From a virus (Duplodnaviria; Caudoviricetes), in IMG/VR virus record IMGVR_UViG_3300021090_000949, positions 1-58,641 of that record: DNA of 58,641 bases. One strand, given 5' to 3'. The translations under genes were made by a program, and so were the position numbers. Positions 9,575 through 58,641 of the stretch are shown one piece after another. Within the stretch, counting starts at the first letter, position 1; each line of letters opens with the position of its first letter. The notes beneath the pieces are model-generated. The model worked only from the letters and a program-made list of their open reading frames with translations, was not told the DNA's origin and did not search any database.

Positions 9575-9577
9575 GTT

Positions 9578-11134: not shown

Positions 11135-11162
11135 AAAACCTCCGTGTAGTGTGACTATGTTG

Positions 11163-11393: not shown

Positions 11394-11400
11394 AGCGTCC

Positions 11401-11616
11401 TTACTGCGTTAGAGCTTTTATTAACTTTCCGGCCAACGGCATCAGGAAATCGAGATAGACCATGATCACTACCACCCCGGCAATCAGCGCCACTAATAGC
11501 TGTGCGCCGATATACCGGAAGTGGGAGGTAACGCCGGCATGGGAACCGTGCCGCCGATAGTTCGCGGCCCGATAACGGGCAAGCTGTCGCTTTTGATAAT
11601 CGTTCAGATCGGCCAT
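11401..11616 (-). CDS. Small membrane protein
   Basis: One TM helix; GGAGG RBS. Confidence 0.55.
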   Translation of the reverse strand: MADLNDYQKRQLARYRAANYRRHGSHAGVTSHFRYIGAQLLVALIAGVVVIMVYLDFLMPLAGKLIKALTQ

Positions 11617-11618
11617 GG

Positions 11619-18414: not shown

Positions 18415-19308
18415 ATGTTCAACTCATTAGTTTACCAAGACGAAGATAAGGCCAGAGTAGCCCTTGAAGCAATACGCTGGCCCGATGGTCCTATCTGCCC
18501 TCATTGCGGCAACTGTGAAGGCATCTACACCATTCAGGGAAAGTCTACCCGGAAGGGTCTCTATAAGTGCGCTGAATGCCGTAAGCCGTTCACTGTCACC
18601 GTTGGCACTCTCTTTGAGCGCAGCCACATTCCATTGAACAAGTGGCTCCATGCCGTTCATCTTCTCTGTGCAAGCAAGAAGGGAATGAGTAGCCATCAGA
18701 TACATCGGATGTTGGAAGTTACCTACAAAACCGCATGGTTTATGACTCATAGAATCCGCGAGGCGATGAAAGACCCTAAGTTCACTTCCATGCTTGGCGG
18801 TGGTGGAAAGATAGTTGAGATCGACGAAACTTATTGGGGCAACAAGTCGGACAAACCGCGCAATCATCGGGGCATGAATCACAAAGAGAAAATCTTCTCG
18901 CTGGTAGAGCGTGGCGGTCAGATTCGTTCGTTCCACGTGGAATCTGTCAAGGGTTCGACCTTGAAGCCGATCCTCTTTGAGCAAATCGCTCAAGATACCC
19001 ATATCGTATCGGATGACTTTGGCTGTTACCGCGACCTCAACCTGTACTTTGCCGAGCACAGCATTGTGAATCATCAGGCTCACGAATATGCGCGCGGTCG
19101 CATTTATACCAACACTGTTGAGAATTACTATTCCATTCTCAAGCGCGGGCTTCGCGGAGTCTATCAGCACGTTGGCAAGCAGCACCTACGCCGTTACGTT
19201 GGTGAGTTTGATTTCCGCTATAATACTCGCGACCTTACCGATAAGCAGAGAACCGCACTGGCCTTACAGGGCATCAGTGGAAAGCGGTTGTTGTATACGA
19301 AAGCCTAA
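18415..19308 (+). CDS. IS1595 family DDE transposase
   Basis: RWPDGPICPHCG..CAEC zinc ribbon, KTAWFMTHRIR, EIDETY, SDD, TNTVENYYSILKR, EFDFRYN. Confidence 0.95.
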   Translation: MFNSLVYQDEDKARVALEAIRWPDGPICPHCGNCEGIYTIQGKSTRKGLYKCAECRKPFTVTVGTLFERSHIPLNKWLHAVHLLCASKKGMSSHQIHRMLEVTYKTAWFMTHRIREAMKDPKFTSMLGGGGKIVEIDETYWGNKSDKPRNHRGMNHKEKIFSLVERGGQIRSFHVESVKGSTLKPILFEQIAQDTHIVSDDFGCYRDLNLYFAEHSIVNHQAHEYARGRIYTNTVENYYSILKRGLRGVYQHVGKQHLRRYVGEFDFRYNTRDLTDKQRTALALQGISGKRLLYTKA

Positions 19309-43517: not shown

Positions 43518-44164
43518 AAGACTGCCTCCTCGATGGTGCACTTCGGAAAGCAGTCGATCGCGCTGTCCGGGCATGCGTTGATGCATGGAATATTGAGTTT
43601 CTCAAGATCTCGCGCGATGGGTGGAAAGCGGTTTCGCATCACTTCGTAATTGCCGACCGAGGCATGCGTCCCATCTTTATGGAGGTAATCTCGGTGATAA
43701 TTGTTGTGGCCATTTTTCTGCTGCATGTCAAATCCCAGGAGCACGATCTTGCCGGCCCCCAGAAGCGTCGCCAGGTTGATCGCGCAGGCTCCCGAGGACA
43801 GGTTCCAGTGGAGCACGGCCGGTTTGGTCGACAGACCCATGGCGTGTGCCTCGCGGAACACGACGCGAATACCAGGACGGTTGAGATGTTCTTCGCGCAC
43901 GGTGATTTTCAGGCCGCCGAAGTCTTCTAAACCTTTGCCATATAGGTCCGGCCAAAGCGGATCGCCGTAGAACATGACGTCAAACTGCCCCAGTCGAAAC
44001 GCGCAGTTGACGGCAATGACCCGGCGACCATCAAGAACTCGCGAATCGAATCCTGCCAGCGACGGTCCGCCACCAATGACGAAGACGGTATCGCCAGACC
44101 AGACCTGAGGAATGCTCCAGTATTTACTGTGCACCCTCGCCCTCACCGGATTTGTTGTCCGCAT
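43511..44164 (-). CDS. DUF115/Maf-like putative glycosyltransferase
   Basis: VIGGGPSL, IAVN, SSGACAINLA..LGAGKIVLLGFDM; start uncertain. Confidence 0.7.
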   Translation of the reverse strand: MRTTNPVRARVHSKYWSIPQVWSGDTVFVIGGGPSLAGFDSRVLDGRRVIAVNCAFRLGQFDVMFYGDPLWPDLYGKGLEDFGGLKITVREEHLNRPGIRVVFREAHAMGLSTKPAVLHWNLSSGACAINLATLLGAGKIVLLGFDMQQKNGHNNYHRDYLHKDGTHASVGNYEVMRNRFPPIARDLEKLNIPCINACPDSAIDCFPKCTIEEAVLC

Positions 44165-44576
44165 CGCCTTGATCACCAGCACCCTCGTCTGTTTTCGATT
44201 CGACTTCCGCCTTCTCGGCTTCCTCAGCAGCTTTCACTGCCGCTTCGGCCTCTTCCGCAAGCACCTTTGCGTCGTATTCTTCGACGGTAATTCCGGCAAT
44301 AGATTCGGCTTCCGCCTTGTGCAGCCGCCGGGAATTGATGGCCACTCCGGTGACGGGGTGGATGACATCGAAATAAGCACCGCCGCGATGTTCGAGTTTG
44401 AATCTCAGCTTCGGCTTGGGCTCAGAGATCGGATCTAAAGCGACGAAGTCCGATTTCATTCCCTCCGGGATCTTCCATTGGCTATCGTCGACGATATGTC
44501 CCGGATAGACATCGAGCCTCTGAGCGCCATTGCGGAGAACGTGGCGGCCTTTGTTTTCCTTCAGCCTATATCGCAT
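44124..44576 (-). CDS. Hypothetical protein after major capsid gene
   Basis: GGAGG RBS; acidic C-terminal tail. Confidence 0.65.
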   Translation of the reverse strand: MRYRLKENKGRHVLRNGAQRLDVYPGHIVDDSQWKIPEGMKSDFVALDPISEPKPKLRFKLEHRGGAYFDVIHPVTGVAINSRRLHKAEAESIAGITVEEYDAKVLAEEAEAAVKAAEEAEKAEVESKTDEGAGDQGDADNKSGEGEGAQ

Positions 44577-44592
44577 GATTCCTCCAATGAGA

Positions 44593-44620
44593 GTGCCGGC
44601 CGACTGTTTACAGCCGGCAC
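44593..44620 (-). terminator. Hairpin downstream of major capsid gene
   Basis: GTGCCGGC/GCCGGCAC stem; weak U tract. Confidence 0.4.
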
Positions 44621-44657
44621 ATGGTTATAGGTACACGATCAATGATCGAGCAGACTA

Positions 44658-45689
44658 TTAGCTCACCGTTCCCTTTACGATGCCGCAATTGCCATCGTAA
44701 TCCTGCCCCAGACGGGGCAAGCGCATACAGATGACCTTGTTGTGCAGGTCTTCGTACGGCGACGGCCCTTCCCACGGGATATTGGCAGTCGGCATACCTT
44801 CGGCCACCTGCACGGTCTGCTCAGAAAGCTCGATCAACAGCGGAGTGTTGGTCGGCAGCTTCGGCGCCACCTGGCAAGCGACAATGCCGTCGATGTCGAG
44901 GATCACCTGCTGCACGTTACGCGCATCGTAATCATAGCAGCGGCGAGCCAGCACCGTACGCCAAGCATCCGGGACGAAGAGTGCCCACGGGCCATAATGC
45001 TTCTTGGTCGTGGACGTGAGGATCAGCTCGAGAACGTCCTCGACGATCTGCACACCGGTCTTTCCGGAAGCATCCCAAGCCGCACCGATCGTCGGGTTCT
45101 GCGTCCCGGTGAAATCAAGCAAGCCGTACAGCGGCGCACTCTTGTAGATCAGCGTAGTGGAGCGTCCGTTGAGGAAGACATCCTCAAGCAGATCGCCCAC
45201 CTGGAAGGCGGCATCCGCGGCCAGCGAGGTATCGAGCGGCGATCCCTGGTTCTGCGACATGTTCAACTCGCGGATATCGATGTCGTAATCCTTGAAGATG
45301 AACGGCAGAGGGATGTACGACCGGCTGTAGACCTGCCGATCGTTCGGGGTGCGCTGAGACGGCCGCATGCCGAGCTGCGCGGGAGCGGTTTGCGATACCG
45401 CATCCCGACCCAGTAGCGTGGCAGAGAAGCCGTCAAACGGAAAGCGCAATGCCCCGCCGTTATAATTGTACAGGAAGTTCAGGATCACCTGGGGCGCTGT
45501 GGCCACCGTGATCACGGTCCGGTCGATGCGCTTCCAGTCCTCTTCGCGCAACGTGGTCACGTTGGCAATGAGGCGTCTCTTCTGGTAGGCACGCCGGATC
45601 TCATTGATGTCTTTGCCCAAAGAGAGCACACGGCGAGTTACTTCACCCTGTCCCGCTCCTTCGGCCATTATCTCGAGGTTTGCAGCCAT
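44658..45689 (-). CDS. Major capsid protein (HK97 fold, Linocin-M18/encapsulin-like)
   Basis: EDWKRIDRTV, PLPFIFKDY.I..REL, PLDTS, YGPWALFV; follows protease and decoration genes. Confidence 0.85.
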   Translation of the reverse strand: MAANLEIMAEGAGQGEVTRRVLSLGKDINEIRRAYQKRRLIANVTTLREEDWKRIDRTVITVATAPQVILNFLYNYNGGALRFPFDGFSATLLGRDAVSQTAPAQLGMRPSQRTPNDRQVYSRSYIPLPFIFKDYDIDIRELNMSQNQGSPLDTSLAADAAFQVGDLLEDVFLNGRSTTLIYKSAPLYGLLDFTGTQNPTIGAAWDASGKTGVQIVEDVLELILTSTTKKHYGPWALFVPDAWRTVLARRCYDYDARNVQQVILDIDGIVACQVAPKLPTNTPLLIELSEQTVQVAEGMPTANIPWEGPSPYEDLHNKVICMRLPRLGQDYDGNCGIVKGTVS

Positions 45690-45759
45690 TGCTTGTCTCC
45701 TTTTGGCAATTGCTTTCGCATTAGTGTCATTCAGTGTTGTCAGCGATCGCTCACAGCCT

Positions 45760-46233
45760 TTAGCCGCGCGTGATCTTTACCCGAATCCGACCGGACGGAT
45801 CGGCTCCAGCCGAACCCGACATATTGACTGCCTCAAGAGCAGTCGCGATGATCGAGCCGACCTTGACCGTGCCGGCCGAAGTGTCAGCCACGACCTTGCG
45901 CAGCGTTCCGCCAGCACCGGATTCCAGTTTGTCGCCGATCGCGACGTTTTCACCGTCGAGCAGCAGCGCGTAGACTTCGTCTCCTTCGCGCAGCCAGGCC
46001 ACTTGAACGAGATCGTCAGTGGAGTAATCGAGAGTGATAGCCCCCCCACCGATGTTTTCCTTGGCTATCAGTGGGGTAATGGCTCCACCGGCGGTGGCGT
46101 GCTTACGCACCTTGCCGGTGGATAGAAGTTCGACGAAATGTCCGGGGGTGATTCCGGCATTTGCCTGATAACTCTCACTCAGATTCGGATTGTATAATTC
46201 ATCCGCTTTGAGGAGGATGGTGTTGTATGCCAT
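45760..46233 (-). CDS. Capsid decoration/cement protein
   Basis: ITPG, IGDKLES.AGGTLR, ALEAV; between scaffold and capsid genes. Confidence 0.7.
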   Translation of the reverse strand: MAYNTILLKADELYNPNLSESYQANAGITPGHFVELLSTGKVRKHATAGGAITPLIAKENIGGGAITLDYSTDDLVQVAWLREGDEVYALLLDGENVAIGDKLESGAGGTLRKVVADTSAGTVKVGSIIATALEAVNMSGSAGADPSGRIRVKITRG

Positions 46234-46306
46234 GGGAATGCTCCTTCTTATGACATGTTGAATTCGTTAATTGTTATCCTCGACATTCTCTCGATCCCGT
46301 CGTGGA

Positions 46307-47929
46307 TTATTTCTTCTCCGCTGCCGCCACGGCGGGCACTTCGGTTGGAATGTCAGGCACGCTGTACGCGCCAAAATTGTCCTGCGAGGTCGGCGCACTG
46401 CCCACCTGACCGGTGTAGTCAGCCACGGTTTCGGCCTTGATGCCGATCGAGCCCGCCAGCTTACCCAGCTCGGTCAGATCCTTCAGCTTCAATTCCTCCT
46501 TGGTGAACAGGCAGCCCTGATTGGCGACGATCTTCTCGATCAACCCATCTTTGGCCTGCTGTTCACGGGTCATCATCCCGCGCACGACATCGCTCACCTC
46601 CTTCGGGGCGGTAGCGAGAAACTGCTCCATTGTCTGTGGCTTAGGTGCCTCCGCTATAGGAGCGGGAGCTGCCGGTGCAGCGGCAACAGGCGCTGCCGCA
46701 ACGGTGGTCGGAGCCACAGCCGCAGGCGGTTTGAGGCGTTCGGCCCATTCATTGAGCTTGCACTCGGTCAGGCCCATCAACATCGGTCGATCTTCTTCCT
46801 TGAAAGGGGTCCGGTCGCACGCGATGAGATCCTTGATCAGATCCTCTTTGGTCTTCATCACACTCTCCTGGTGAATGGTTACATTTGCGGTCGTGGAAGC
46901 GACCGGGACATATTCTGTTTTTTCGACGACCTCAATGGGGCCATCAGCCACGACAACCTTATTGGTAGTTGCGTCGACGCTGAAGCCGCGCTTATACATG
47001 CTCGTGCTGGTCGTACTGCCCGTCATGTTATTGCGCCGCGAGGTGCGGTAAATGAAATAGTCGTCGTAGACTTCCTTGAGATAGTTATAGAACTCAGTCG
47101 AATCGAGGCTGTTGACGAAATCCCAGAGTTGCTGGGATACCTCGTCATGCGACAATTCGTTCGCGACGATCCACAGCGCCTTATCGTCGAGGCTCATGAG
47201 GAAAGCGCGATCCTCTTCGGTGAAATCATTTCCCTTATCCGAGAACAAGGCGTTGATTCGGGTTTCTTTAGTGTCGGGGCTTTTCGCTCCGAGCATCGCG
47301 CGCAGGAAACTCCATTTTCTTGGCATAGGCATAGCTGGCTCCTTGGAAATTGGTAGAATGATCTTCTGATTAGCTCGCACACCGCACCCATCCTCCCATG
47401 AGCAGGCGCCTGAGGCTCCGGGCAGCAACGCAAGATGATCGAAACGGATATTGGTGACCACCTCGTCATAGGTTTCGCCATTCCAGACGCCGGTGGTTGC
47501 GGTCGCATCGCCCATGATCCCGAGTGAAACGTCGATCTGTTCGCCATTCTGCAACATCTCGATGAGACGCTGGGGTGCGCGGGCAGCATCTATCCACGCC
47601 TCGCCACGCAAGCGCTGGTTTTCGGCGCTGACATTGGAAACGCGGCCGATGATAAATGATTCCCCCTCAGGACTGTTGGCCGGCACGAGTTCCGTTGCGT
47701 TCATCGGGTGGTAAAGCGTTGTCGCCTGCCCCGAGAGCGTGTCTGCACCCGCGCTAATTTCTGCAAACGAATAGAAACTCCGCGGTCCCGGCTGACCGGG
47801 TGCAATGATCCCCTGGTGTACTCCCTCGACCATGCCCACAAAAGGCACGACAAAATGGCGGCGGCCGTCGAGCGTTTCTTCACGCACAATGGCACCGCCA
47901 AGACGACAAGCGATATATTTGAGGCTCAT
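46307..47929 (-). CDS. DUF2213-like prohead protease with C-terminal scaffold
   Basis: T.YHP, LRGEAW, DVSLG, DHLALLP..GACS..DGCG; Ala/Pro-rich tail. Confidence 0.8.
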   Translation of the reverse strand: MSLKYIACRLGGAIVREETLDGRRHFVVPFVGMVEGVHQGIIAPGQPGPRSFYSFAEISAGADTLSGQATTLYHPMNATELVPANSPEGESFIIGRVSNVSAENQRLRGEAWIDAARAPQRLIEMLQNGEQIDVSLGIMGDATATTGVWNGETYDEVVTNIRFDHLALLPGASGACSWEDGCGVRANQKIILPISKEPAMPMPRKWSFLRAMLGAKSPDTKETRINALFSDKGNDFTEEDRAFLMSLDDKALWIVANELSHDEVSQQLWDFVNSLDSTEFYNYLKEVYDDYFIYRTSRRNNMTGSTTSTSMYKRGFSVDATTNKVVVADGPIEVVEKTEYVPVASTTANVTIHQESVMKTKEDLIKDLIACDRTPFKEEDRPMLMGLTECKLNEWAERLKPPAAVAPTTVAAAPVAAAPAAPAPIAEAPKPQTMEQFLATAPKEVSDVVRGMMTREQQAKDGLIEKIVANQGCLFTKEELKLKDLTELGKLAGSIGIKAETVADYTGQVGSAPTSQDNFGAYSVPDIPTEVPAVAAAEKK

Positions 47930-48897
47930 GCGACCCTCCGGTGACTGTGCAGGGGGCGAACGTTATCCGTAATGCGATTGCGCGCGATATACGGCTTAGC
48001 GGCGCAGCGGCACTGCGGATGAACGGGGATCATTGACTCTATTTCATCGAGGCTGAAGACCTTCCCCTGAAGCGCTTCACATTCAGGACATACCCTGTCA
48101 TCACCGGCCGTGCTAAATTCCGCCTGCACCTCGACGGTCATTGCGGCATCAGCGCGACGTAATTCGTTGATATTTGCCAGATGATGCGCCCGAATTACTT
48201 CAGTCCGGGCGATCATGCGCGCTCGGTTCAGCCCGATCTTGTCGAGCCCTGACGCGATATCTTTGACCATCTCACGCGCCATCGTGAGCGGCGATTTCCC
48301 TTCCGCGATCCCGCGCGTCAGATTGGTGGTCAGTCCGTCGATCAGTTTGCGCCGGGCATCCGCGTTGACGACTTCCATTACCGTCTTGAGATCTTCGAAC
48401 GTGCGGGTATAGAGCACACCGACGCGGTCAGCGTGCACCGGGAGATTAAAGGCGGTGACGACCATACTTCGGCCAGGCAACGATCCCTGAAGCGGCAGTT
48501 CAAACTGTGCCCGTTCCAACTCTGTCTGCGCGCGTCCGATACCGAGCCGATAGGCAGATTGAATGTAGACATCAGTCCAACCGACGTTGATGGCGGTGTT
48601 GGTCCCGGGACGCAAGACGACTTGAAGGATGCCTGCCTCTTCCTGTTCTTTAAGCCAGAGCAGGAAGGCCTGTACTTTCGCGGCGGTGTCGCGTTCGAAC
48701 GCAAACTCGCGCGGCCGAGCTGCTGCCAGCGAACGCATCAAGGGCACCTCAATTGGCTGGATCCCAAAGCAATCGTTGTCGACGATCGAGAGCCGGATCA
48801 ACCGTAGCAACTCACGGAGGCGCTTCGCCATATCGCCTTCGAAGCGACGACGGAGACCGGAGGTCCGACTGGGATCAAGCTGACTGGGTGTCGGCAT
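47926..48897 (-). CDS. Head morphogenesis protein (Mu gpF / SPP1 gp7 family)
   Basis: RARMIARTE, DDRVCPEC, IPVHPQCRC. Confidence 0.9.
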   Translation of the reverse strand: MPTPSQLDPSRTSGLRRRFEGDMAKRLRELLRLIRLSIVDNDCFGIQPIEVPLMRSLAAARPREFAFERDTAAKVQAFLLWLKEQEEAGILQVVLRPGTNTAINVGWTDVYIQSAYRLGIGRAQTELERAQFELPLQGSLPGRSMVVTAFNLPVHADRVGVLYTRTFEDLKTVMEVVNADARRKLIDGLTTNLTRGIAEGKSPLTMAREMVKDIASGLDKIGLNRARMIARTEVIRAHHLANINELRRADAAMTVEVQAEFSTAGDDRVCPECEALQGKVFSLDEIESMIPVHPQCRCAAKPYIARNRITDNVRPLHSHRRVA

Positions 48898-51653
48898 TAT
48901 CTATTCTTCCACCTTGGAAGGTTCTGGTAATAGACCACCGAGTCACTGACCGGGACCCGGAATTTCTGAACTTCCACGATCTTATCATTAAATCGATTCT
49001 TGATTGTCGCGCGATAGCAGCTGCTATCGTTGGTGAAGAGTTGGTTGGGATACAGATTGACCAATGCCAGCCCGTTTGCGTCTCCCCGGAACCGCATCTG
49101 CTCGAAACTGGCTGCGATCAGCGAATTGTTGATCCTTAGCAGTGAGTCAGGATGCGCGGCGAGCAGTTCGACGGTAACCGCCAGAGAGTCATTGGCTGTG
49201 CCATCCGGTTTCTTTAGCAAGAAGGCGACGGTCGAGGTAAGGGTGTCCGAGTCAACCACAATTGCGGCGCAGAATCGCATGGTGTCGACCCCCACACCGG
49301 AGACGGTGAAGGAATCTGTCTCCGGCAGATAGCGAGGATCGGCATGCAGCCTGACCCAGTTCCCCGCGTTGAGTCCAAGTGCAGCTCGTCCAAGATTGTC
49401 GGTGGTCACCATATATGGATCAGCCGACTGCGCTTGGTTGTTGAAATAGATCGCCATTTGTGGGACAACCTCGTCAGGCGCGGCGGACGTGTCGATCACG
49501 ACAATCGTTCTTGTGTAGCCCAAAGAATCGCCGCAACTGGAGCCCCCTCCCCCACCAGCTCCAATGCGGGAGTAGTAGTAGGCCATCTTACTGGGATCTC
49601 CCAGGTTGTCCTGGTGGCCAACGGTATCTGCGTCATGCATTCGGTTCGTGATATTCGCGGCGAGTGCACCGGTATCACTCGGCGTGAGCGGAACAACTCC
49701 ATCGACATTGACGACTTCCGCGTGGATCAGATTGATGCTGTCGCGAATTGCCAGGAGGCGCGCAATTAACGTATCCACTTCCGGTCTCAGCCAGACCTCT
49801 CCCCCGGATCCGCCTTCAACCGCGAGACGCAGGAAAGCAACCAACGTGGTATCATTATCCAGCGTCTGATCGAGCGTGTCTTTGATCTCCGTATATTCTC
49901 CCGGTGCGAGCTGGGCGGTCGTGCGCCCCGTGCTCGCGGTGATGGCGAGATCCGAGAAGTTCGTAGGGAAAGACTGTGACAACGAGTAGCCCGACTTATC
50001 AGCGTTCGAAGCGACCGTCACTCGTCCTGAACCGTCGATCGAGAAGAGGCTAAAGTTTGTAGGGAAGGTGGGCGGACTCCAGCCGTTGAGATTACCAACC
50101 TCCGCATGAACCAGATTCATACTATCGCGCAGAGCGAGGAGCCTTGCGATCAGGGTGTCGACCTCCGGGCGCAACCAGACTTCGTCGGCAACGCCACCGG
50201 CAGCCGCCAATCTCAGAAGCTGCAGAACGGTGCTATCGTTATCGAGGGCCTCATTGATTGTATCTTTGATCTCTGTATACTCACCAGCTTCCAAGGATGC
50301 AGTGTACCCGGTCTTATCGTTATTCGTGCCGACCGTCACATCAGCAACTTTCCGCTGTGCTATGGTAGTTGAGTCGCCACCTGAACCGGTGGCGATGCCC
50401 CAAACAGTTCGTTTGACCACACGAGCGACCACACCGGAATCAGCTCCAGTCGATGCTCCAGTCTGGCTATAATAATAGGGCATCTTGGTTGGATCGCTGA
50501 TCTCAGCCTGGTGCCCTACCGTATCTTCTTCCGCGACCTGGAAAGCAGCTGTATCACCAATCGTAGTAGCCACACCGGGACCGAGACTCCCGACTGCGAC
50601 ATAACCAGTACTGGCAGTAATTGACAGATCAGAGAAATTAGTCGGGAAGGTTTGAGTTAAGGAGTAGCCTGTCTTGTCCGCATTGGTACCCACAGTCACA
50701 CGGCCGGTTGATGCCGTGATCGCTAAGTCTCCAAAATTGGCAGGGAAGTTTTGGACGAGCGAATATCCAGTTTTATCGGCATTCGTCCCGACTGTTACCC
50801 TGCCGGTTCCGGCCGTAATTGAGAGGTCAGCAAAATTGGTCGGGAAGGTTGGAGGAGTCCAACCATTCGTGTTGACCACCTCGGCATGGACCAAGTTGAC
50901 GGAATCCCTCATCGCGAGGACCCGGTTAATGATCGAATCTCGCTGTGCGGCAGTCCATACCTCGCTGCCGGCTGATATTGTAGAGAGAATGGCGCGAAGA
51001 TAAGCAACGAGCGTCGTGTCATTATCCAGCGCTGAGTTGAACGCGCCCATACGAACCAACACGGAGTCAGTTGCGGCCGCGAAGGTTGATCGAGTCGAGA
51101 TCGCGGCATCGAGGTTCGGAGCTTCAGATGCGTTGATTGCACTGGCTGCGATCTTGTTCGCGGTGATCGCGTCGTCCTGAAGCGTGACTCCGGTGGTCAC
51201 CGAATTGACTGAGCCACTGACATTTCCGGCAACGGAGCCAACCGATCCCACCACATTGCCGCCGACATTGCCGGTCACCGAACCGACTGAGCCCGAGAGA
51301 TTCCCGGTAATATTGCCGGTCATGCTGAACGTTTGTGCCGACGCGAGGACCTGGTTATTTCGAGTGACCGCAGAAGCATGATTAGTGAACGTGTCATTCG
51401 TTGCGTTCGTCCACATGAACTCAAGGTCCCAGTTGTACAGGTCGTCGAGGGTGAGGATCGTATCCTTGTAGCCGAGAGCTGAGATATCGACATCCACTGA
51501 GTCTATCAGGGTCGTATATTCCCGCACCCACCTTATCCGAACATCGGTATAGTCCGTAGACTGGAGATGAATTCGTTTGTCGAAGGTTGCAGCATCGAGG
51601 AACGATTGGCCTAAAGCCAAAACCATCAATGCACATACGATCAACTTCTTCAT
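48897..51653 (-). CDS. Large repetitive protein with signal peptide (918 aa)
   Basis: MKKLIVCALMVLALG..LDA; GSVGSV, VTVGTNADKTGYSL and LDNDTT..RDS.NL.HAEV repeats; GAGGAG RBS. Confidence 0.75.
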   Translation of the reverse strand: MKKLIVCALMVLALGQSFLDAATFDKRIHLQSTDYTDVRIRWVREYTTLIDSVDVDISALGYKDTILTLDDLYNWDLEFMWTNATNDTFTNHASAVTRNNQVLASAQTFSMTGNITGNLSGSVGSVTGNVGGNVVGSVGSVAGNVSGSVNSVTTGVTLQDDAITANKIAASAINASEAPNLDAAISTRSTFAAATDSVLVRMGAFNSALDNDTTLVAYLRAILSTISAGSEVWTAAQRDSIINRVLAMRDSVNLVHAEVVNTNGWTPPTFPTNFADLSITAGTGRVTVGTNADKTGYSLVQNFPANFGDLAITASTGRVTVGTNADKTGYSLTQTFPTNFSDLSITASTGYVAVGSLGPGVATTIGDTAAFQVAEEDTVGHQAEISDPTKMPYYYSQTGASTGADSGVVARVVKRTVWGIATGSGGDSTTIAQRKVADVTVGTNNDKTGYTASLEAGEYTEIKDTINEALDNDSTVLQLLRLAAAGGVADEVWLRPEVDTLIARLLALRDSMNLVHAEVGNLNGWSPPTFPTNFSLFSIDGSGRVTVASNADKSGYSLSQSFPTNFSDLAITASTGRTTAQLAPGEYTEIKDTLDQTLDNDTTLVAFLRLAVEGGSGGEVWLRPEVDTLIARLLAIRDSINLIHAEVVNVDGVVPLTPSDTGALAANITNRMHDADTVGHQDNLGDPSKMAYYYSRIGAGGGGGSSCGDSLGYTRTIVVIDTSAAPDEVVPQMAIYFNNQAQSADPYMVTTDNLGRAALGLNAGNWVRLHADPRYLPETDSFTVSGVGVDTMRFCAAIVVDSDTLTSTVAFLLKKPDGTANDSLAVTVELLAAHPDSLLRINNSLIAASFEQMRFRGDANGLALVNLYPNQLFTNDSSCYRATIKNRFNDKIVEVQKFRVPVSDSVVYYQNLPRWKNR

Positions 51654-51654
51654 C

Positions 51655-52434
51655 TTAATATCTCCTCGAGGCTTTATCCGCCTTTTGCCGGAATCCAGCT
51701 TGATCGGCCTGATATAGAGAATTGGGCAGCGACGACACGACAGGAGTCGAATCGGCAATGGCGACGCCTATAGCAAGTGCATCATCACTGGACTGTGTCC
51801 ACCCCATCGTTACATCTACAGTAGAAATTATATCATAGTAATAGACACCCATAGTCTGAGATGTAAAATCGAACGCATAAGCCGATGTCCAATTAGCTAA
51901 CGGGGTATTGCTTGATGGAGCATTTTCTCCGGAATGAAAGGCTTCGGCACAAAACGATGATACTCCACCAAGTGCCAAAGTTGCACTCAGGCTTGTGCCA
52001 CCAGTCGTAGTAATCGTAATATCGATGTCTTGTACTTTTGTTAGACTCGTAGTACCTGTTACTGTTATAGCAGTAGCCGTTTTAACCGAAGTATTTGTTA
52101 CGGTCACTACGACTGATTGAGTATTGGCAGGAACTCCAGCACCAAGAAAATATGCGTAAACAGTTCCAGGTTCACCGGTAGCACGGGCAAACGGCGAACC
52201 GGTTACCTCTGTCATGTTTACTCCGCCGTAGGTAACACCAGAAACCTCGTCTGTGGCTCCGACATTTTGTACGATAAAGACAATGACTCCTTTTGGTGAA
52301 GCTCCTGCGGTATGATTCCAAGTCAAATTACCAGTCCCCGGAGTTCCATGCGATGTTAAGGCATCGAAAGCCACAGCATAGGTCATGCTACAGGAGCCTA
52401 ACAACAATATGAGTATCAGTTTAATCAAATTCAT
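51655..52434 (-). CDS. Thr-rich beta-sandwich protein with signal peptide
   Basis: MNLIKLILILLLG..; LTWNHT, VSGVTYGGVNMT; TGATG coupling. Confidence 0.7.
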   Translation of the reverse strand: MNLIKLILILLLGSCSMTYAVAFDALTSHGTPGTGNLTWNHTAGASPKGVIVFIVQNVGATDEVSGVTYGGVNMTEVTGSPFARATGEPGTVYAYFLGAGVPANTQSVVVTVTNTSVKTATAITVTGTTSLTKVQDIDITITTTGGTSLSATLALGGVSSFCAEAFHSGENAPSSNTPLANWTSAYAFDFTSQTMGVYYYDIISTVDVTMGWTQSSDDALAIGVAIADSTPVVSSLPNSLYQADQAGFRQKADKASRRY

Positions 52435-55400
52435 CAGTATGCTTTCGGCTTTCCAATGAGCCACGCCTTTGCGATGTAGACCTTGCCAGCCGCGTTCGCG
52501 TTGAAATTAGTTCGGAACCGGGCCACCCAACTGGAACCAGCCAGCTTGAAATCCCGATCCATTGGATAGGCGACATAGGCCCAGCTCGTCGAAGTGAGAG
52601 CGACATCCACCGATCTGATCGAGTCAGCTGCAAAGGCAGCGTCGCCGGAAGGATGAATGAAGAATAGGCTGTCGATAGTTGTTCCTGTGCCTGAGACTTT
52701 GTAGAGGATGCCGACAGAGTCCGCGTCGAACGTGCAGTCGACCGATCCTCCGACCTCGAAGGAATCATTGAGCGCGGTCGAAACATCGCTCGATGCATTC
52801 ATCACCATCCACCGCTCAGCTGTTCCATTGAACCGACCGAAGTGAAGCTCCAGGGAGTCCGTCGCAGCCGGGAGGGTAGACCTCGCATAGACGTCCGTCG
52901 CCGGAAGCCTCGTCAATCGGTGCTGGATATCCGACCATGAGATCGCTGAAGCTGCGATGTTGGTCGAGTCGATCACATCTGCGGCGACGGTGAGTGAGGT
53001 CGCTCCAGTCACTTCGCCTGTGTGAGTGACGTTGTACTTATTGGTAGCACCTTCGGTCAGGTCATCGGTGGAAACCTGATTGGCTCCTGTGCCGAAATCT
53101 ATGTGCGTGTCGTCGATGCCATCGGCTTTGACTTCAAGCTGACCTGAAGCCGTCGTGTCTATTGAATTGTTATCGAAATCGGCGAGGCCGAAGAACCTGG
53201 CGGCGATGTACGCTCTCACCGCAGCGGAATCTACCACAAACCGCATCACATCATAATCGGTCGAGTCTTCTCGCTGGATATCGAGCCAGGCGCCCTCCTT
53301 TATCTTAAGGAGATTATTAAGGATCGAGTAATATGTCGAGCCGTCGAAGATCGAGAGCGAATCTTGCGTCCCTGAACCAGCACCATCGTCCGTATTTGGC
53401 GCCCATGCAGTACCACTCCATTCTAATACTTGACCAGTACTGGCACCAGATTGCGCGATTATGCCAGGCTCCATTTTATCGTTGTCCGTCGCGTCACCCG
53501 CCAGTTGATCCGGGTCAAGATCGGTAGCGCAGGAGTCGTTTGCCCAGCCGAGAGAATCCGGCGTCGGAGTGGTTTGGAGTTTCTGTATTTGGCCGTTTGT
53601 TCCTGTAGTGGTAGGGAGACTGTAGTTTGTGAACGTGATCTTTCCTGTCGTGGAGACGGTGAATCTGTCGGCGACACCTGATCGACGAAGCACGAAATCA
53701 TCAGTCGTGGCGTTGTGCTTGATCTGCCATTGCCCTGCTCCAACTTCCTGAAAGAAGATAGATGGATCGCCGGATGTCGCATCGAGGACGATATTGGCCG
53801 AAGCGCGTTCGATTTCAAGTGGGCCTGCCGGAGTCGTGATTGCCGCTCCGATGCCGACGTTATTGTGGAATATCACTTGACCGATGAGTCGGCTCGTCCC
53901 GGCTACGTAGAGCGAATCATTAATCGCCAGAGTATCTGTCTTATTGAACTTGACAATGTCAGCCGTTGACCCGCTTATACCCGCCGTGACATTCGGCGCC
54001 AGATAATTCTCGATGATCAAGTTCTTCGACGATGAAGTCAAAAGGAGACCATAAGCCTGCGTACTGTTCGGGCTGGAGCATACGTTGCCGCGTACGTCAT
54101 TATGCAAGCAACTGTTCAAAGCAATTCCAGCGAATGTACCAGAAGTAAGAGAGTCGTTATTGACGCAAACATTGCCGCTGATCGTCGAGAAGTCAGTTGA
54201 GAGAAGATAGATGCCGTTCTGCTCCGCCTTCTGAATGGTGTTGTTGGCGATCGTGATGTACTCGCCTCCTGATGCGCCTTCCGAGTAGATGCCGTGACCA
54301 TTGGTCTGGGATACGACGTTGCCGGTCACTGAACTGTAATGAGAACTCTCGAGGTGAATGCCATAGCCATTGGCACCGTAGACCTTGTTGCCGGTCACGG
54401 TGCAAAAGTCGCCCGCGACTCTGATAGCAGTCGTATCGCAGGCATAAACCAGGTTATCGGATATCACGTAATGATCCCCAGATGCAGCATTGATCGCATT
54501 GTCGGTCTGGTCGTAAAAACTGTTCCCGGTTATCGTGATGTTCTGCGACTGGACGCTGACGGATGAAGTATAAACTCCGCGCCCGGCGCACTCGACAAAG
54601 CTATTGCCTGAGACGGTCGTATTGTAGCCCTCTTGCAAGTGCACCGTCGTCTGGTTGCATCTCAAAAACAGATTGTCAGAAATGATGATATTCCTGAGCG
54701 TGTCGCCGCCCTCAATGTTGACGTCGATCGCGGCTCCACCGGCAGTGATCACATTACCATAGATCGTGACCTCTGAGGCTTTGCATAAAACTCCGGATGG
54801 AATTAACCCGCCGAATAGGTAGCCGATTGGCTGTCCGGCGATCTTGTTATTGCTGATGATGATTCGGCGAGTCGTGAGCCCACTGGCCGTTATCCCTTCT
54901 TCCCCGTTCGCCCACAAGGTATTCCCGGATATCTCAACATCCGTAGAACCATTACGGACGGCGATCGCATCCTTGTCTGCTCCCGCGATGAAACATCCCC
55001 TTATCGTCGACTTGGATATATTCTTGAACGAGACGACATCAGCGGAATCCGGTTCTGAGTAACTGGCATAAGCCTTGCCGCCATCCAGGGAGAGGTTTTC
55101 GATAACGATCCCCGTATTGCCGGCTGTCGTGTCTGCGTTCTCGATCATCGTCCGAGTAACGGCTCCGGACATCTTGAGCGTCGCCCCTTCGCCGCTTCCG
55201 ATGATGCTGGTATGTGAAGGAAGATAGAGAGTGGCATCGATCAGATAGACTGAGTTACTCAACGGGACGAATACCACTCCACCTGAATCAGGGAGCGCGT
55301 CGATAGCAGCTTGAATCGCTGCTCGGTCATTCGTCGTGCCGTCGCCTTTGGCGCCGAAATCGCGGACGTTCTTCCATTGCTTGTTTTTCACGTAGGCCGG

Positions 55401-55478
55401 GACCGACACCGGCGAATCCTGTGCCAGTGCGGGCAGCGCCCAGATGATCAGCAACAAACCGAAGAGGATGCGTTTCAT
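52434..55478 (-). CDS. Pectate-lyase-like right-handed beta-helix protein with signal peptide
   Basis: MKRILFGLLLIIWALPALA; NVRDFGAKGDG..DRAAIQAAID; many I(S/T)GN repeats. Confidence 0.85.
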   Translation of the reverse strand: MKRILFGLLLIIWALPALAQDSPVSVPAYVKNKQWKNVRDFGAKGDGTTNDRAAIQAAIDALPDSGGVVFVPLSNSVYLIDATLYLPSHTSIIGSGEGATLKMSGAVTRTMIENADTTAGNTGIVIENLSLDGGKAYASYSEPDSADVVSFKNISKSTIRGCFIAGADKDAIAVRNGSTDVEISGNTLWANGEEGITASGLTTRRIIISNNKIAGQPIGYLFGGLIPSGVLCKASEVTIYGNVITAGGAAIDVNIEGGDTLRNIIISDNLFLRCNQTTVHLQEGYNTTVSGNSFVECAGRGVYTSSVSVQSQNITITGNSFYDQTDNAINAASGDHYVISDNLVYACDTTAIRVAGDFCTVTGNKVYGANGYGIHLESSHYSSVTGNVVSQTNGHGIYSEGASGGEYITIANNTIQKAEQNGIYLLSTDFSTISGNVCVNNDSLTSGTFAGIALNSCLHNDVRGNVCSSPNSTQAYGLLLTSSSKNLIIENYLAPNVTAGISGSTADIVKFNKTDTLAINDSLYVAGTSRLIGQVIFHNNVGIGAAITTPAGPLEIERASANIVLDATSGDPSIFFQEVGAGQWQIKHNATTDDFVLRRSGVADRFTVSTTGKITFTNYSLPTTTGTNGQIQKLQTTPTPDSLGWANDSCATDLDPDQLAGDATDNDKMEPGIIAQSGASTGQVLEWSGTAWAPNTDDGAGSGTQDSLSIFDGSTYYSILNNLLKIKEGAWLDIQREDSTDYDVMRFVVDSAAVRAYIAARFFGLADFDNNSIDTTASGQLEVKADGIDDTHIDFGTGANQVSTDDLTEGATNKYNVTHTGEVTGATSLTVAADVIDSTNIAASAISWSDIQHRLTRLPATDVYARSTLPAATDSLELHFGRFNGTAERWMVMNASSDVSTALNDSFEVGGSVDCTFDADSVGILYKVSGTGTTIDSLFFIHPSGDAAFAADSIRSVDVALTSTSWAYVAYPMDRDFKLAGSSWVARFRTNFNANAAGKVYIAKAWLIGKPKAY

Positions 55479-55494
55479 GGTTCTATCACGTCTC

Positions 55495-55932
55495 TTAGAA
55501 AGTCACGTTGAAATCGTTCACCTTGTTCGGCTTCAACGTGTCCGGGATGATGAACGACTTGATGTTCGAGATATCCGACCAGTTTGGCGTTTCGTCGGCA
55601 GTCTTGATTGCCGAGTAGTAGGTCACACCCGTCAGCAGCGACAGTCCCTTGGTGACTGATTCAGGGGAACCGGCGACCTTAGGCGCAGGCAACCCGGTGA
55701 CAGGTTTGCAGGCCGACCAGAAGCTGGTCAGACTGTCCGAGGTACGGGCATAACGAATGTCGTAAGCAGATGCCTGACCGATCATCCCGTCATCGCCAGG
55801 CGCGGTCCAACTGAAGGTCACATTGACCGTGACCGTTTGTGAATGGGTTTTGTCGCATCCGATCAGCATCAACTGCAATAGGGCGAGTAACATCGCCAGC
55901 ATGGTCAGTCTAAACATCTTTGTTCGGGTCAT
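55495..55932 (-). CDS. Fibronectin type III domain protein with lipoprotein-like signal
   Basis: LMLIGC lipobox; WTAPGDDG..YDIRY..YYSAIKTADE..NWSDISN; GGAGG RBS. Confidence 0.75.
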   Translation of the reverse strand: MTRTKMFRLTMLAMLLALLQLMLIGCDKTHSQTVTVNVTFSWTAPGDDGMIGQASAYDIRYARTSDSLTSFWSACKPVTGLPAPKVAGSPESVTKGLSLLTGVTYYSAIKTADETPNWSDISNIKSFIIPDTLKPNKVNDFNVTF

Positions 55933-57301
55933 CGCCATCCTCCGGGTTTGGGAGATCCTCGGGTGGGAGCTCCTGCAGTTGTGTGGATAGTTTTTCCATG
56001 ATCCCCTTGATTTCTTCTGGGGTACACCCCAGCCAGCCAAGGAACTTCTCGATCGGGATGACCGTATCGCCGCCACTATTGAGGAAGGTCGCGGTTGCTT
56101 CGGCTCGCGTCTTCGCAACGTCAGCCTTCTCTTTGTCAGATGGCGAGAGTAGATCATCCCACTTCACATTGTATTGGGCAGCCTGTTTTCGCTTGAGGAT
56201 GCCCACCTCGACCAGGCGATCAAAGAATGGGCGAATGATACTTGGCTCGCAAAACTGCTCGCGCCGGCTCTTGATCTGGCGGAACCACCGGACGAGGTCC
56301 ATAGTCGAGGCAAGCTCGCCGAGTTCTGAGCCCAACAGCACGCGCTTGGGGATCCGCTTGCCCGCTGCGACCATGTCCAGCTGCATCGAGAAGTGATTAA
56401 TCGGGTCAGAGATCTGTTGGACCAGCTCTTTCGCTTCGACCCCCTGCAACAGCAGGAATTTCTTCATGCGGTGGACCAGGTCGAGGATCTTCTCTTCGTA
56501 TTTTGCCTTGACGTCGTCCCCGATCGTGAAGGTCTTGTCCAAATTGAAGACCATACCGGGATCGGCCAGGCGCCAGAATGCTTCCGCGTCCGCACCGACC
56601 AGTTTTTCGATATCATAAAGGCGATTGAAGATCACCTCCAGCTGCGGCGTCCCCTCCACCGGATTGGTCAGACATTCCTGAGCCACATGGATAACTCTGG
56701 TGTAATGAACATCTGTCGGTGTCACTTTATCGCCGACGCCTATCGATAAGGAATAAAGAACGGGCAAGCCATACCGAGGACTCTGAGGACTCGTGTCGGT
56801 CGACTTGATAGTGATCGACCCCTCACCGTATGGTGTGGCGTACAGTAGGTCAGACGACGTCGTTGCCGGCTGAGTCAGGCTGGTCGAGCTATCCTTGAAT
56901 CCAAGGAGTAAGACCGCATACTTCCCGAGCGATGACAGGATATCCAGCCGTGAGAAGACCTGCTGCAATCGAAACTTGGTGACGATCTCAGTGGCCGCGC
57001 GCTCGAACACAGTGTCCTGTTCTGCGGACTCTTCGATGGTCGGGAACGTCTCCCAAGACGCGGCTACGGGAGCATTGATAACGCCCTTGGCTATCTCATT
57101 ACGCAGGTAGTATGACTGATAGTCGATGTAGGTCGGCTCCTTCTTGTAGCCGAGCGTTTTGGTCAGATCGCGCTGACCATCGTATTGCTTGCCCATCGCT
57201 TCGCCGATGCGTTGCCTCTCGAACAGGGTGCTCGACAGTCCGCGAAGTTCTGAGATGATCGCGGACGCTTGGGCCGCCGACATGGATGACTTGCCGCTCA
57301 T
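55910..57301 (-). CDS. Portal protein (DUF1073-like)
   Basis: SPRYGLP..Y, VHYTRVIH, IPKRVLLG..GELAS..D; position after terminase. Confidence 0.85.
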   Translation of the reverse strand: MSGKSSMSAAQASAIISELRGLSSTLFERQRIGEAMGKQYDGQRDLTKTLGYKKEPTYIDYQSYYLRNEIAKGVINAPVAASWETFPTIEESAEQDTVFERAATEIVTKFRLQQVFSRLDILSSLGKYAVLLLGFKDSSTSLTQPATTSSDLLYATPYGEGSITIKSTDTSPQSPRYGLPVLYSLSIGVGDKVTPTDVHYTRVIHVAQECLTNPVEGTPQLEVIFNRLYDIEKLVGADAEAFWRLADPGMVFNLDKTFTIGDDVKAKYEEKILDLVHRMKKFLLLQGVEAKELVQQISDPINHFSMQLDMVAAGKRIPKRVLLGSELGELASTMDLVRWFRQIKSRREQFCEPSIIRPFFDRLVEVGILKRKQAAQYNVKWDDLLSPSDKEKADVAKTRAEATATFLNSGGDTVIPIEKFLGWLGCTPEEIKGIMEKLSTQLQELPPEDLPNPEDGDDPNKDV

Positions 57302-57537
57302 TCGCCGTTTTCTCCGAGGATCTCATTAACCCGATCTAAGGGCATGTGCTCTTTCTCGATGAGGTACCAGCGGGCGAAGTTGACGACTGCCCAAGTACGC
57401 CGTTCGAGGTTTCCGAGGTCTTTCACGAGTGACGATAACTTGTACTGCATCACGCCATAGGTGACGGCAAAGGTCAGAACCGGTAACCCGATCTGCATAA
57501 CGATACTCAAGTCTACCACCACTGGAATGCCCTCCAT
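57298..57537 (-). CDS. Small single-TM/coiled-coil protein
   Basis: Hydrophobic N-terminal helix then amphipathic helix; ATGA overlap with portal. Confidence 0.6.
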   Translation of the reverse strand: MEGIPVVVDLSIVMQIGLPVLTFAVTYGVMQYKLSSLVKDLGNLERRTWAVVNFARWYLIEKEHMPLDRVNEILGENGE

Positions 57538-57539
57538 AA

Positions 57540-58641
57540 TTATCCGAGGTAAAACTCTTTCGGGTTTGTGAGGCGCAAAAAGGCGCCCGACAATGCATCG
57601 ATCTGATCCGATTGACACTTGTCTGTACCGTCGTAATTTTCCGCCTCGCCGAGAAACTCTTCCACCCAGGGGCCGTCGACGAGCTTGATCAGTTGCGCCT
57701 CTGCAGCAGCGGATACCGGCTCAGCTCGTTTGCCTTTGGATTCATGCACGGGATTGGCGTAGGCGATGAATCCTTTCCCGATCAGCTTTCGAACGTGCAT
57801 CTGCGCTTCCATTACTCCCGCCTGGCCGGGATCCTGTTCGATGCCGATATGTACGGCGTTGCCATCTCCGCTCGCGGTGTTGTGGATCCGTGTTTCAACG
57901 GTGAGCGGGCTGCCCTGAAAACGCTCGACATGCATGAGGAAATATTCACCTTCAGCGGTCTTCCCCAGTTTGACGCCGGCGGTATGCGAAGAACCTTTCC
58001 TGGCCTGATCGGCCGCGGTGGCCGCTCTATCCCAGTAACGAACCACATTCGGACATCGGGGTGCGGTCTTGACGATCTGAAAGTATGACCGCTGGAAGAA
58101 GGTGCCGGCGTGATCGTGAACGTTCCAGTTGCCGCCCTTATCCTCGTGACCAAGCAAGCGCTCTCGTTCAACTTTACGCAGACTCTTGAGCTTGGCCATA
58201 TAGGACGGGTCAGCGGTCAGCAGGGCCGGATTGTCGATCGTGCGTGAGCGGATGAAGGTAAAGGATAGCGGGGAACAGTCGGTGCCGAACCGATCGATCA
58301 TCTCCTGGCGGGTGTTGCCCCATTCCAGCTTATTATTGAGATTGACAAACCATTGCAGCACGCCCGAGCGTTCGGGAATGGCATACCCATCAGGCGCGAT
58401 GTACCAATCGACCATCTCGCGCAACCAGCCCCCGACTTTGTTCTGGCGGGGCACGGGGTTACATGTCGCACACATTCGGGGCCGGACGCCCGAGGTTGAC
58501 CGGTTACGCGAGAGCATGTAGAAGAACTGGTCGCGCTCGAATGACTCGAGCTGATCAAAGCCGATCAACGCGATCTGGGATCCATCCCACTTGTAGCGAT
58601 CGGAGACCTGCTCCATGTGAGCGTATCTGACCGTGGCTCCC
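57540..58641 (-). CDS. terL: Terminase large subunit (5' end outside window)
   Basis: ATCNP, DNPAL, YWDRAAT, IEQDPGQAG, DQIDALSGAF nuclease motifs; upstream of portal. Confidence 0.9.
   Translation of the reverse strand, partial: GATVRYAHMEQVSDRYKWDGSQIALIGFDQLESFERDQFFYMLSRNRSTSGVRPRMCATCNPVPRQNKVGGWLREMVDWYIAPDGYAIPERSGVLQWFVNLNNKLEWGNTRQEMIDRFGTDCSPLSFTFIRSRTIDNPALLTADPSYMAKLKSLRKVERERLLGHEDKGGNWNVHDHAGTFFQRSYFQIVKTAPRCPNVVRYWDRAATAADQARKGSSHTAGVKLGKTAEGEYFLMHVERFQGSPLTVETRIHNTASGDGNAVHIGIEQDPGQAGVMEAQMHVRKLIGKGFIAYANPVHESKGKRAEPVSAAAEAQLIKLVDGPWVEEFLGEAENYDGTDKCQSDQIDALSGAFLRLTNPKEFYLG

Follow-up and report, generated by a model that had tools for sequence, protein, structure and literature searches.

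The stretch of DNA analyzed here (the window, 58,641 nucleotides (nt)) is the IMG/VR virus record IMGVR_UViG_3300021090_000949, which derives from an uncultured freshwater-sediment phage. The record is 58.6 kb long, linear, and 88% complete according to CheckV. Nearly all long open reading frames (ORFs) of the window lie on the minus strand. Read from high to low coordinates, the late region holds the gene for the large terminase subunit (TerL), an ORF of 106 amino acids (aa), the portal gene, four genes that we call A, B, C and D, a Mu-F gene, and further capsid genes. The portal stop and the Mu-F start are 7012 nt apart, and this space is filled by genes A–D, all on the minus strand. Each of the four begins with a leader-like stretch, and in this respect an earlier note on the same DNA, which had described four consecutive leader-bearing genes between portal and a gpF/gp7-type gene, was confirmed. 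The block consists of the following features:

55910-57301, minus strand: portal gene, the upstream boundary (PF06381, E 1.8e-28; phrog_146 portal, E 5.4e-60); its last 23 nt overlap gene A
55495-55932, minus strand: gene A, 145 aa; ATG with GGAGG 6 nt upstream and a further ATG at 55938
55858-55932, minus strand: leader of A, residues 1-25; MTRTKMFR, 16 hydrophobic residues and the lipobox L-I-G-C; score 2.57
52434-55478, minus strand: gene B, 1014 aa; right-handed beta-helix at residues ~28-530, followed by a fibre-like C-terminal extension of 480 residues
55422-55478, minus strand: leader of B, residues 1-19; MKR, then ILFGLLLIIWAL (12 hydrophobic residues), then A-L-A with Q after the predicted cut
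51655-52434, minus strand: gene C, 259 aa, 14.2% Thr; its ATG overlaps the stop of B (TGATG)
52393-52434, minus strand: leader of C, residues 1-14; MNLIK, then LILILLL, then either G-S-C (Cys15, 52392-52390) or T-Y-A with V after the cut; score 2.93
48897-51653, minus strand: gene D, 918 aa; GGAGA 7 nt upstream; modular and fibre-like
51591-51653, minus strand: leader of D, residues 1-21; MKK, then LIVCALMVLAL (11 residues), then L-D-A with A after the predicted cut
47926-48897, minus strand: Mu-F / SPP1 gp7-type head morphogenesis gene, the downstream boundary (PF04233, E 1.6e-17; phrog_758, 5.4e-26)

The tight coupling within the late operon that the note had described was equally evident, with junctions between -23 and +16 nt. 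Portal and A overlap by 23 nt, A and B are 16 nt apart, B and C overlap by 1 nt, C and D are separated by 1 nt, and the ATG of the Mu-F gene shares 1 nt with the stop of D. Consensus scans of 44000-58641 found promoter-like and terminator-like sites without excess over shuffled sequences (9 vs. 9.3 and 13 vs. 11.7, respectively). Given this packing and the lack of any promoter or terminator excess, A–D are probably expressed late, together with the head genes. Behind the Mu-F gene come genes for a DUF2213 protease/scaffold-like protein, an XM1 gp53-like minor capsid protein and an HK97-type capsid protein.

Since portal and Mu-F genes are normally adjacent, as are gp062 and gp063 of Cellulophaga baltica phage phi10:1, a block of this size between them could indicate a chimeric assembly or a dead insertion. 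However, a Logan contig of one sequencing run (X1, possibly the source sample) covers 47910-56326 with 0 differences. Contigs of a second run from another study (X2) cover 51204-53182 with 0 differences, which includes the start of D, the whole of C and the end of B, and 55275-55966 with 1 difference, which includes the start of B, the whole of A and the end of portal. Both runs are labelled as freshwater sediment metagenomes; no RNA run was listed as holding the stretch. As contigs of two studies span the junctions and inner borders with 0–1 differences, the block is no assembly artefact. In addition, all four frames are open, and three of the four genes share the codon composition of the phage. 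We therefore give the artefact explanation next to no weight. A second strain, diverged by ~14%, coexists with the window phage.

The GC content at third codon positions (GC3) of A, B and D is 0.61–0.71, compared with 0.59–0.76 in the rest of the phage. Gene C is compositionally foreign (GC 0.458; GC3 0.365, compared with 0.59–0.76 in 19 other genes). Its leader codons do not differ from the remainder of the gene in AT-richness, so that the leader probably arrived together with it. By its composition, C appears to be a recent replacement inside a native-looking cassette. The source was probably another phage, because 95 IMG/VR stretches encode C relatives. A pattern scan of one genome per species in 185,579 species gave no close homolog of B, the best match being a Planctomycetota metagenome-assembled genome at 26% identity. 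The note had allowed for the block being a host-derived insertion, in its wording an unexpressed one; the lack of a close bacterial homolog of B, the phage-like codon composition of A, B and D, and the operon-tight packing all speak against such a dead insertion.

Leaders were read from the sequence and scored with a heuristic rule, namely K or R first and then an uncharged 10-residue window with a mean Kyte-Doolittle value of at least 2.2. Genes A and C were absent from the automatic gene set and were scored separately. The fixed rule classified 6 of 68 window genes as leader-like: A, B, C, D, and the ORFs at 24613-24083 and 23996-23199. A run of four among 68 genes with six flagged was obtained in ~0.12% of permutations. 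Again judged heuristically, B and D show the layout of Sec substrates processed by signal peptidase I, with a charged n-region, an uncharged core of 7–15 residues, and small residues at positions -3 and -1. In A, the hydrophobic core ends in L-I-G-C, with Cys26 at 55857-55855 and Asp at +2. This motif fits the lipobox consensus [LVI][ASTVI][GAS]C, expected where the hydrophobic core ends, and A is thus a predicted lipoprotein with a canonical lipobox, to be processed by signal peptidase II. The corresponding motif of C, L-G-S-C, has an unusual Gly at -2, and its hydrophobic core comprises just 7 residues.

Whether the leaders are translated depends on the choice of start codon. In C, an in-frame ATG at codon 17 (52386) gives MTYAVAFDA..., the usual leaderless start of the family, and the public gene call for C (P0193) took this start; from Met17, the protein has no leader. 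In A, B and D, starts behind the leader would truncate conserved domains (in A, the putative fn3 domain), which argues that these leaders are not skipped. True starts downstream of the leaders, a possibility raised in the note, are therefore unlikely for A, B and D, and may apply to C. By comparison with relatives, the leaders look like real export signals in B and D, and probably also in C.

The leaders are conserved in the nearest relatives. In all five nearest relatives of B (P0122-P0126, 35–50% identical to it over residues 1-650), a comparable leader precedes the same mature start. Among 50 more distant viral relatives, the script called none leader-bearing (0/50), and on examination 49 of them lack a leader, which indicates that the B leader is specific to its own subfamily and not general to phage beta-helices. 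The closest viral B relative (locus L002) keeps the hydrophobic core and the cleavage motif, with no canonical start codon before them. For D, leaders were found in 32 of 119 listed relatives. Ten of the relatives have the C-terminal domain of D; eight of these bear a leader, and the starts of the remaining two are unclear or truncated. The closest relative of D (P0004) begins with MKR... and V-Q-A before ANFNKR, which aligns to ...L-D-A before ATFDKR in D, and the leader is kept in P0003 and P0026 as well. In a D-related group of N-terminal domains with the motif QKNVA, the motif lies 3–5 residues past the predicted cleavage site if the protein has a leader, and at residue 2–3 if it has none. 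Similarly, in about 14 of 72 C relatives the conserved AIAFDA start is directly preceded by an added leader of 20–24 residues; this count corrects the 16 of 73 proteins that the script had flagged, since inspection showed that 3 of these were an internal strand and that P0202 had been missed. In the C and D families, the leader thus looks like an add-on placed exactly before the start residue of leaderless relatives, and not like a chance extension of the reading frame. The comparison with closest homologs that the note had proposed therefore came out in favor of the leaders, both for B and for the D relatives sharing the C-terminal domain.

The L002 relative of B is a 1803-aa ORF (L002 362-5797, genome G001) with a stop codon 8 codons upstream of its first canonical start, which is explained by either a non-canonical start or a contig error. 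A 1311-aa protein precedes it, whose PHROG matches are weak; the one that carries a name is 'internal virion protein with endolysin domain' (E 8.2e-4). A 316-aa leader protein of L002 was considered as a 'mini-D' and was not supported (best BLASTP E 0.15); likewise, neither the likeness of C to a 396-aa protein of L002 nor that of two small leader proteins to each other was supported.

We then looked at the genes around C relatives in 75 viral loci; in 7 of these, the C relative bears a leader (L103 and L104 nearly duplicate each other). Same-strand neighbors at a distance of up to two genes were leader-like in 11 of 26 cases if the C relative has a leader, compared with 18 of 204 if it has none (Fisher p 4e-5). 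Among genes farther from the C relative, 11 of 538 were leader-like. Because leaders co-vary between neighboring genes, which chance extensions would not do, the leader state seems to be a property of the cassette. The leader-bearing neighbors include a Beta_helix protein, an S8 subtilase (Peptidase_S8) lipoprotein, a PKD protein and a CBM96 protein, which by their domains are envelope-active types. Cassettes of 3–5 leader-bearing proteins around a member of the C family were observed at L097 465-7602, L130 4337-12384, L132 6874-10351 and L086 4930-8726. Their members include a PKD protein, a beta-helix protein and an S8 subtilase that bears the lipobox-like motif LLSC, and the cassette in L130 is followed by small membrane ORFs that represent a possible lysis cassette. 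PHROG searches with the neighbors in the leader cassettes of L086, L130 and L132 gave no informative family.

The mature part of A (residues ~34-145) appears to form a single fn3-type domain. At E ≤ 0.001, it matches 7783 proteins, most of which are giant and contain many repeats. A itself has no Pfam match at E ≤ 0.01 and no PHROG match, and the fn3 call rests on five relatives (5–9 matched stretches each) that match PF00041 with E 1e-38 to 1e-73. Of the lipobox-bearing Fn3 protein that the note had described, the lipobox was thus found directly, at Cys26, and the Fn3 domain through relatives only.

B was described in the note as a beta-helix protein of 1014 aa, and direct Pfam matches bear this out: Beta_helix (PF13229) 1.1e-39, NosD (PF05048) 2.9e-25 and Pect-lyase_RHGA_epim (PF12708) 1.1e-16, in addition to a PHROG tail spike match of 4.8e-29. 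Residues 28-133 of B align to residues 153-261 of the full-length Sf6 tailspike 7sg7 (E 6.5e-9). The helix of B starts ~9 residues past the predicted cleavage site, and the equivalent point in Sf6 is residue 153, behind the particle-binding domain. Before the helix of B, whose motif begins at residue 28, there is no recognizable particle-binding or adaptor domain. Within the C-terminal extension, residues 764-853 match S74-bearing fibre proteins over short stretches. An export of these proteins for the sake of disulfide formation received no special support, as B contains 11 Cys (1.1%) compared with 0.84% in the leaderless J-like protein of the same phage.

C, which is Thr-rich as the note had stated, has 72 relatives. 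Its AlphaFold2 (AF2) model (predicted local distance difference test score, pLDDT, 91; predicted template modelling score, pTM, 0.84) is a two-lobed beta-sandwich, and a Foldseek search of BFVD with this model gave 100 matches at E ≤ 0.001. The best fold matches are annotated as 'minor tail protein' of Gordonia and Mycobacterium phages and of uncultured Caudovirales (E 2e-11, template modelling (TM) score 0.56–0.71). Comparison with solved structures gave weak beta-sandwich matches only (Foldseek TM ≤ 0.30, VIA Z ≤ 6.1). In the 75 viral loci, the C domain stands alone in a protein of up to 300 aa in 27 cases and is the N-terminal domain of a longer protein in 48; the long phage proteins that usually begin with it are fibre-like.

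D is modular: a beta domain at its N-terminus is joined by G-x-V-x-S-V repeats and by three helical segments, which alternate with FPTNF...DKTGY repeats, and the C-terminal domain is a beta-sandwich (~706-918). It has 637 partial relatives, and the C-terminal domain is conserved in 10 of them. D matched no Pfam family, no PHROG tail family and no solved chain of the Protein Data Bank (PDB; 0 at E ≤ 1). Except at the C-terminus, the AF2 model of the D monomer is of low quality (pLDDT 41.8), too low for use in fold searches, and Atlas leads (CarboxypepD_reg) score < 0.9. The repeat and coiled-coil layout, together with the conserved C-terminal beta domain, fits a fibre-like protein. There was no match to D at E ≤ 1 among the ORFs of loci L002-L162, and neither C nor D had a match in 50,697 GenBank phage records. 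IMG/VR single-protein scans with the portal and with D, and an alignment scan with the C-terminal domain of D, found no relatives; a metagenome scan with a smaller alignment (A4) found one 2.8-kb contig. A complex prediction for C (17-232) and the N-terminal domain of D (23-110), run without controls, scored 0.00 and is evidence neither way.

Outside the block, the late region contains a long-tailed tail module of the alphaproteobacterial-phage / gene-transfer-agent type further down the window, which also encodes a phiJL001 gp84/BR0599 baseplate hub. The relevant features are:

57540-58640, minus strand: TerL, cut by the window end
57298-57618, minus strand: ORF of 106 aa with a membrane helix, between TerL and portal
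37546-33899, minus strand: ORF of 1215 aa without a family match, judged to be the tape measure by size and position
32042-28470, minus strand: J-like tip protein, 1190 aa, Rcc01698-like, leaderless
28208-27420, minus strand: DUF2793 tail fibre, leaderless
26167-25742, minus strand: endolysin

Among cultured viruses, TerL is most similar to that of an archaeal Methanoculleus virus (43% identity), followed by Rhizobium phages (39%), and the tip protein resembles those of alphaproteobacterial phages at 31–36%. The ribosome-binding sites and the tail module, as far as they can be read from the sequence, do not point to a Bacteroidota host. Variant contigs of both runs list 30 differences in 57278-57469; because 23 of them fall on the third codon position of the 106-aa ORF, the latter looks like a real gene under purifying selection. 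The two further leader-bearing ORFs (24613-24083, minus strand, 176 aa; 23996-23199, minus strand, 265 aa) lie downstream of the endolysin and of a 202-aa membrane ORF. They have no PHROG family and could be spanin-like proteins or further exported accessories. The early region (534-16778, minus strand) encodes a HerA-like ATPase, N6/N4 and C5 DNA methylases, a DUF5131 protein and an SbcCD-like pair (AAA_23 and Metallophos). An IS1595-family transposase (18415-19308, plus strand; DDE_Tnp_IS1595 2.4e-32 and a zinc ribbon) lies in a low-GC island (GC 0.47–0.48, 18–21 kb). No integrase or repressor was found among the ORFs scanned, which were part of the ORFs of a record that is 88% complete.

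In the textbook view, the assembly of tailed phages is wholly cytoplasmic, and genes of the spike or fibre type are routinely annotated as virion parts. We searched the literature (supplementary tables lay outside the search) and found no paper on export signals of tail-fibre or tailspike cassettes of tailed phages. Considering known systems that share some of the features described above, we compared the block with cassettes of two Cellulophaga phages. In phi10:1 (KC821618, L246 41847-48878), gp091-gp095 are all leader-like by the fixed rule (5/5). The GenBank record annotates gp091-gp094 as 'structural protein' with experimental tandem mass spectrometry (MS/MS) and gp095 as pectate lyase. 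In phi46:3 (KC821622, L248 30343-38945), gp079-gp083 are likewise leader-like (5/5), and four of them are called structural by similarity. The leaders of both phages end in ...SAQ before T, or similarly. Common to these phages and the window phage are a run of consecutive late leader genes, five there and four here, and an enzyme of the pectate-lyase type. However, no sequence similarity to A–D was found (best E 0.004 in a database of 8 proteins), and the hosts there are Bacteroidota, whereas the window phage uses Shine-Dalgarno sites. Moreover, the Cellulophaga cassettes come last among the tail genes and are followed by the lysis genes, while the block described here splits portal from Mu-F in a phage with separate, leaderless tail fibres. 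We know of no study on the export of the Cellulophaga structural proteins. The note had taken signal peptides to be absent from the virion proteins of tailed phages; in view of the phi10:1 record, with its four leader-bearing proteins annotated as structural on MS/MS, this was too absolute.

B has the same right-handed beta-helix of the pectate-lyase type as the tailspikes of Sf6 and P22, but carries a leader instead of the N-terminal particle-binding domain, and in addition the 480-residue C-terminal extension. Small lipoproteins of the T5 Llp and Cor type are encoded by phages beside receptor-binding genes; acting on the envelope of the producer cell, they block the receptor and protect the progeny from debris. 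The same functional logic may apply to A (and C) together with B and D as proposed below; what the sequence shows of it is the predicted lipoprotein nature and the location next to genes of the receptor-binding type. This likeness is one of description only: Llp and Cor each act as one small protein, which binds a receptor protein of the outer membrane, whereas here an enzyme-like beta-helix protein of 1014 aa and a fibre-like protein of 918 aa would be expressed with late head genes. For the architecture of D, the MAT (mosaic adhesive trimer) fibres of Bdellovibrio bacteriovorus offer a parallel. According to PMC10769870, they are phage-tail-fibre-like proteins of ~1000 aa in which a signal peptide is directly followed by a beta-rich domain (~130 aa, homologous among MATs); a long trimeric shaft leads to an adhesive tip that varies, and the fibres are presented outside the cytoplasm. 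D shares with them the size, the resemblance to fibres, and a leader placed directly before a beta-rich domain. MATs are encoded by the cell and serve prey recognition, and since D matches no solved chain, in a search that covered solved fragments, the likeness is one of architecture only. A survey of carbohydrate-active enzymes (CAZymes) in prophages (PMC13507307) reports predicted signal peptides in 3261 of 64,678 (5%). That survey deliberately excluded genes of the tail-fibre or structural type and concerns auxiliary enzymes and not a cassette in a late structural operon. By this comparison, the Cellulophaga cassettes may be regarded as the closest functional analogs of the block, the MAT fibres as closest to the architecture of D, and Llp and Cor as closest to the role proposed here.

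We propose that genes A–D encode a late accessory module of tail-appendage origin that would be exported through Sec and Lol and act on envelope glycans of the producer cell, and we assign this interpretation a probability of roughly 45%. It is built on gene order and packing, on the leader sequences with their conservation and co-occurrence, and on the domains, and it extends these to export, timing of expression, substrate and benefit. B and D would leave the cytoplasm through Sec and be cut by signal peptidase I, while A, and perhaps C, would be processed by signal peptidase II as lipoproteins. B, C and D would descend from tail-appendage families of the virion, refitted with leaders and lacking a recognizable particle-binding part. 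Late in infection, B may cut surface or nascent polysaccharide of the infected cell, D may bind a surface ligand via its C-terminal beta-sandwich, and the lipoproteins could keep the set at the membrane. In this way, the glycan receptor or matrix on the producer cell and on debris would be destroyed or masked, and the progeny would escape without being lost by re-adsorption. We favor the accessory module because a leaderless tip protein and tail fibre exist elsewhere in the genome, because B has no particle-binding domain, and because at least one member is a predicted lipoprotein; the position of the block outside the tail module was also counted in its favor. The block itself is a real and unusual feature, for which a function is proposed.

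Several points weigh against the accessory module. The leader calls are heuristic and read from the sequence, no RNA run was found that holds the stretch, and C may begin at Met17 and hence have no leader. Sec delivers to the periplasm only, which offers no account of how B and D would get to a glycan on the surface of a diderm host, and with late expression there would be little time for remodeling a surface that is already in place. Furthermore, the B, C and D families have other members at tail-fibre positions: a D-like gene in L243 directly precedes an endolysin-like gene, which is a tail-fibre position, and the structural genes of L130, L132 and G001 end with those for leader-bearing proteins. 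The four consecutive leader-bearing proteins of phi10:1 that are annotated as structural on MS/MS favor a particle reading.

These last observations lead to an alternative that we regard as less likely and yet as the main rival: A–D, or B, C and D at the least, would be exported, undergo folding or modification in the periplasm, and join finished particles at lysis, so that the phage would complete its gear for host recognition outside the cytoplasm. B, C and D do come from tail-spike, minor-tail and tail-fibre families, the C domain is N-terminal in proteins of more than 300 aa in 48 of 75 viral loci, the genes lie in the head operon and would be made together with virion parts, and leader-bearing relatives occupy expected tail-fibre positions in other phages. 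The annotations of the Cellulophaga records raise its weight further: in phi10:1, the MS/MS-annotated gp091-gp094 are followed by the leader-bearing pectate lyase gp095, and in phi46:3, four of five consecutive leader-like proteins are called structural by similarity. It is conceivable, if somewhat doubtful, that all four proteins are true particle parts picked up by finished heads or tails at lysis, in an extracytoplasmic last assembly step for which the lipoproteins A and C could dock a pre-assembled B/D appendage at the membrane. However, a tip protein and a tail fibre, both leaderless, are already encoded elsewhere in this genome, a lipid-anchored A would be unexpected on a non-enveloped particle, and B has no recognizable particle-binding domain. 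The MS/MS annotation, known here from the record, is compatible with co-purifying envelope material, and the block is not homologous to the Cellulophaga cassette. Both alternatives of the note, appendages added to the virion and a repurposed envelope set, thus still lead; the second is favored, and the two are not decisively separated. Its core inference, that tail-appendage-like proteins bear real export signals, is supported by the comparison with relatives and common to both; the proteins thus probably mature outside the cytoplasm.

If the leaders were unused or skipped, A–D could instead be conventional cytoplasmic virion proteins, joining the particle in the cytoplasm as head or neck fibres encoded next to the portal gene, a place that suits neck or head appendages. 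The Met17 start of C, which gives the usual leaderless N-terminus of the family, and the related gene in L002 without a canonical start before its hydrophobic stretch are consistent with this. We nevertheless consider it improbable, since starts behind the leader truncate a conserved domain in A, B and D, the leaders show the full n/h/c layout with A-x-A or a lipobox, they are conserved in the nearest relatives, and they co-vary across neighboring genes in other phages, which a non-functional extension would not. Even less probable in our judgment is a moron or lysogenic-conversion cassette, which a prophage would express to the advantage of its host by furnishing the cell surface with adhesins and a glycanase. 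Temperate phages do encode exported proteins inside their late operons, lom and bor of lambda being the precedent, gene C was recently acquired (GC3 0.365), and the IS1595 transposase suggests that the genome has spent time inside cells. On the other hand, promoter and terminator signals that would belong to the block itself do not exceed chance level, its junctions overlap or measure at most 16 nt, no integrase or repressor was found among the ORFs scanned of this incomplete record, and there is no close homolog in bacterial genomes.

A late-operon cassette whose members all bear leaders would mean that some phages finish their particles outside the cytoplasm, or that they have turned receptor-binding gear into envelope effectors acting on the producer cell. 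If the latter is true, such effectors may serve in receptor destruction, help with egress, or the exclusion of other phages. Either reading, if true, adds an unstudied step to the phage life cycle, and predictions of host range that rely on 'tail fibre' genes would go wrong with genes of this kind. Exported depolymerases would be natural candidates for secretable anti-biofilm enzymes, and the cultured Cellulophaga phages offer a ready experimental system.

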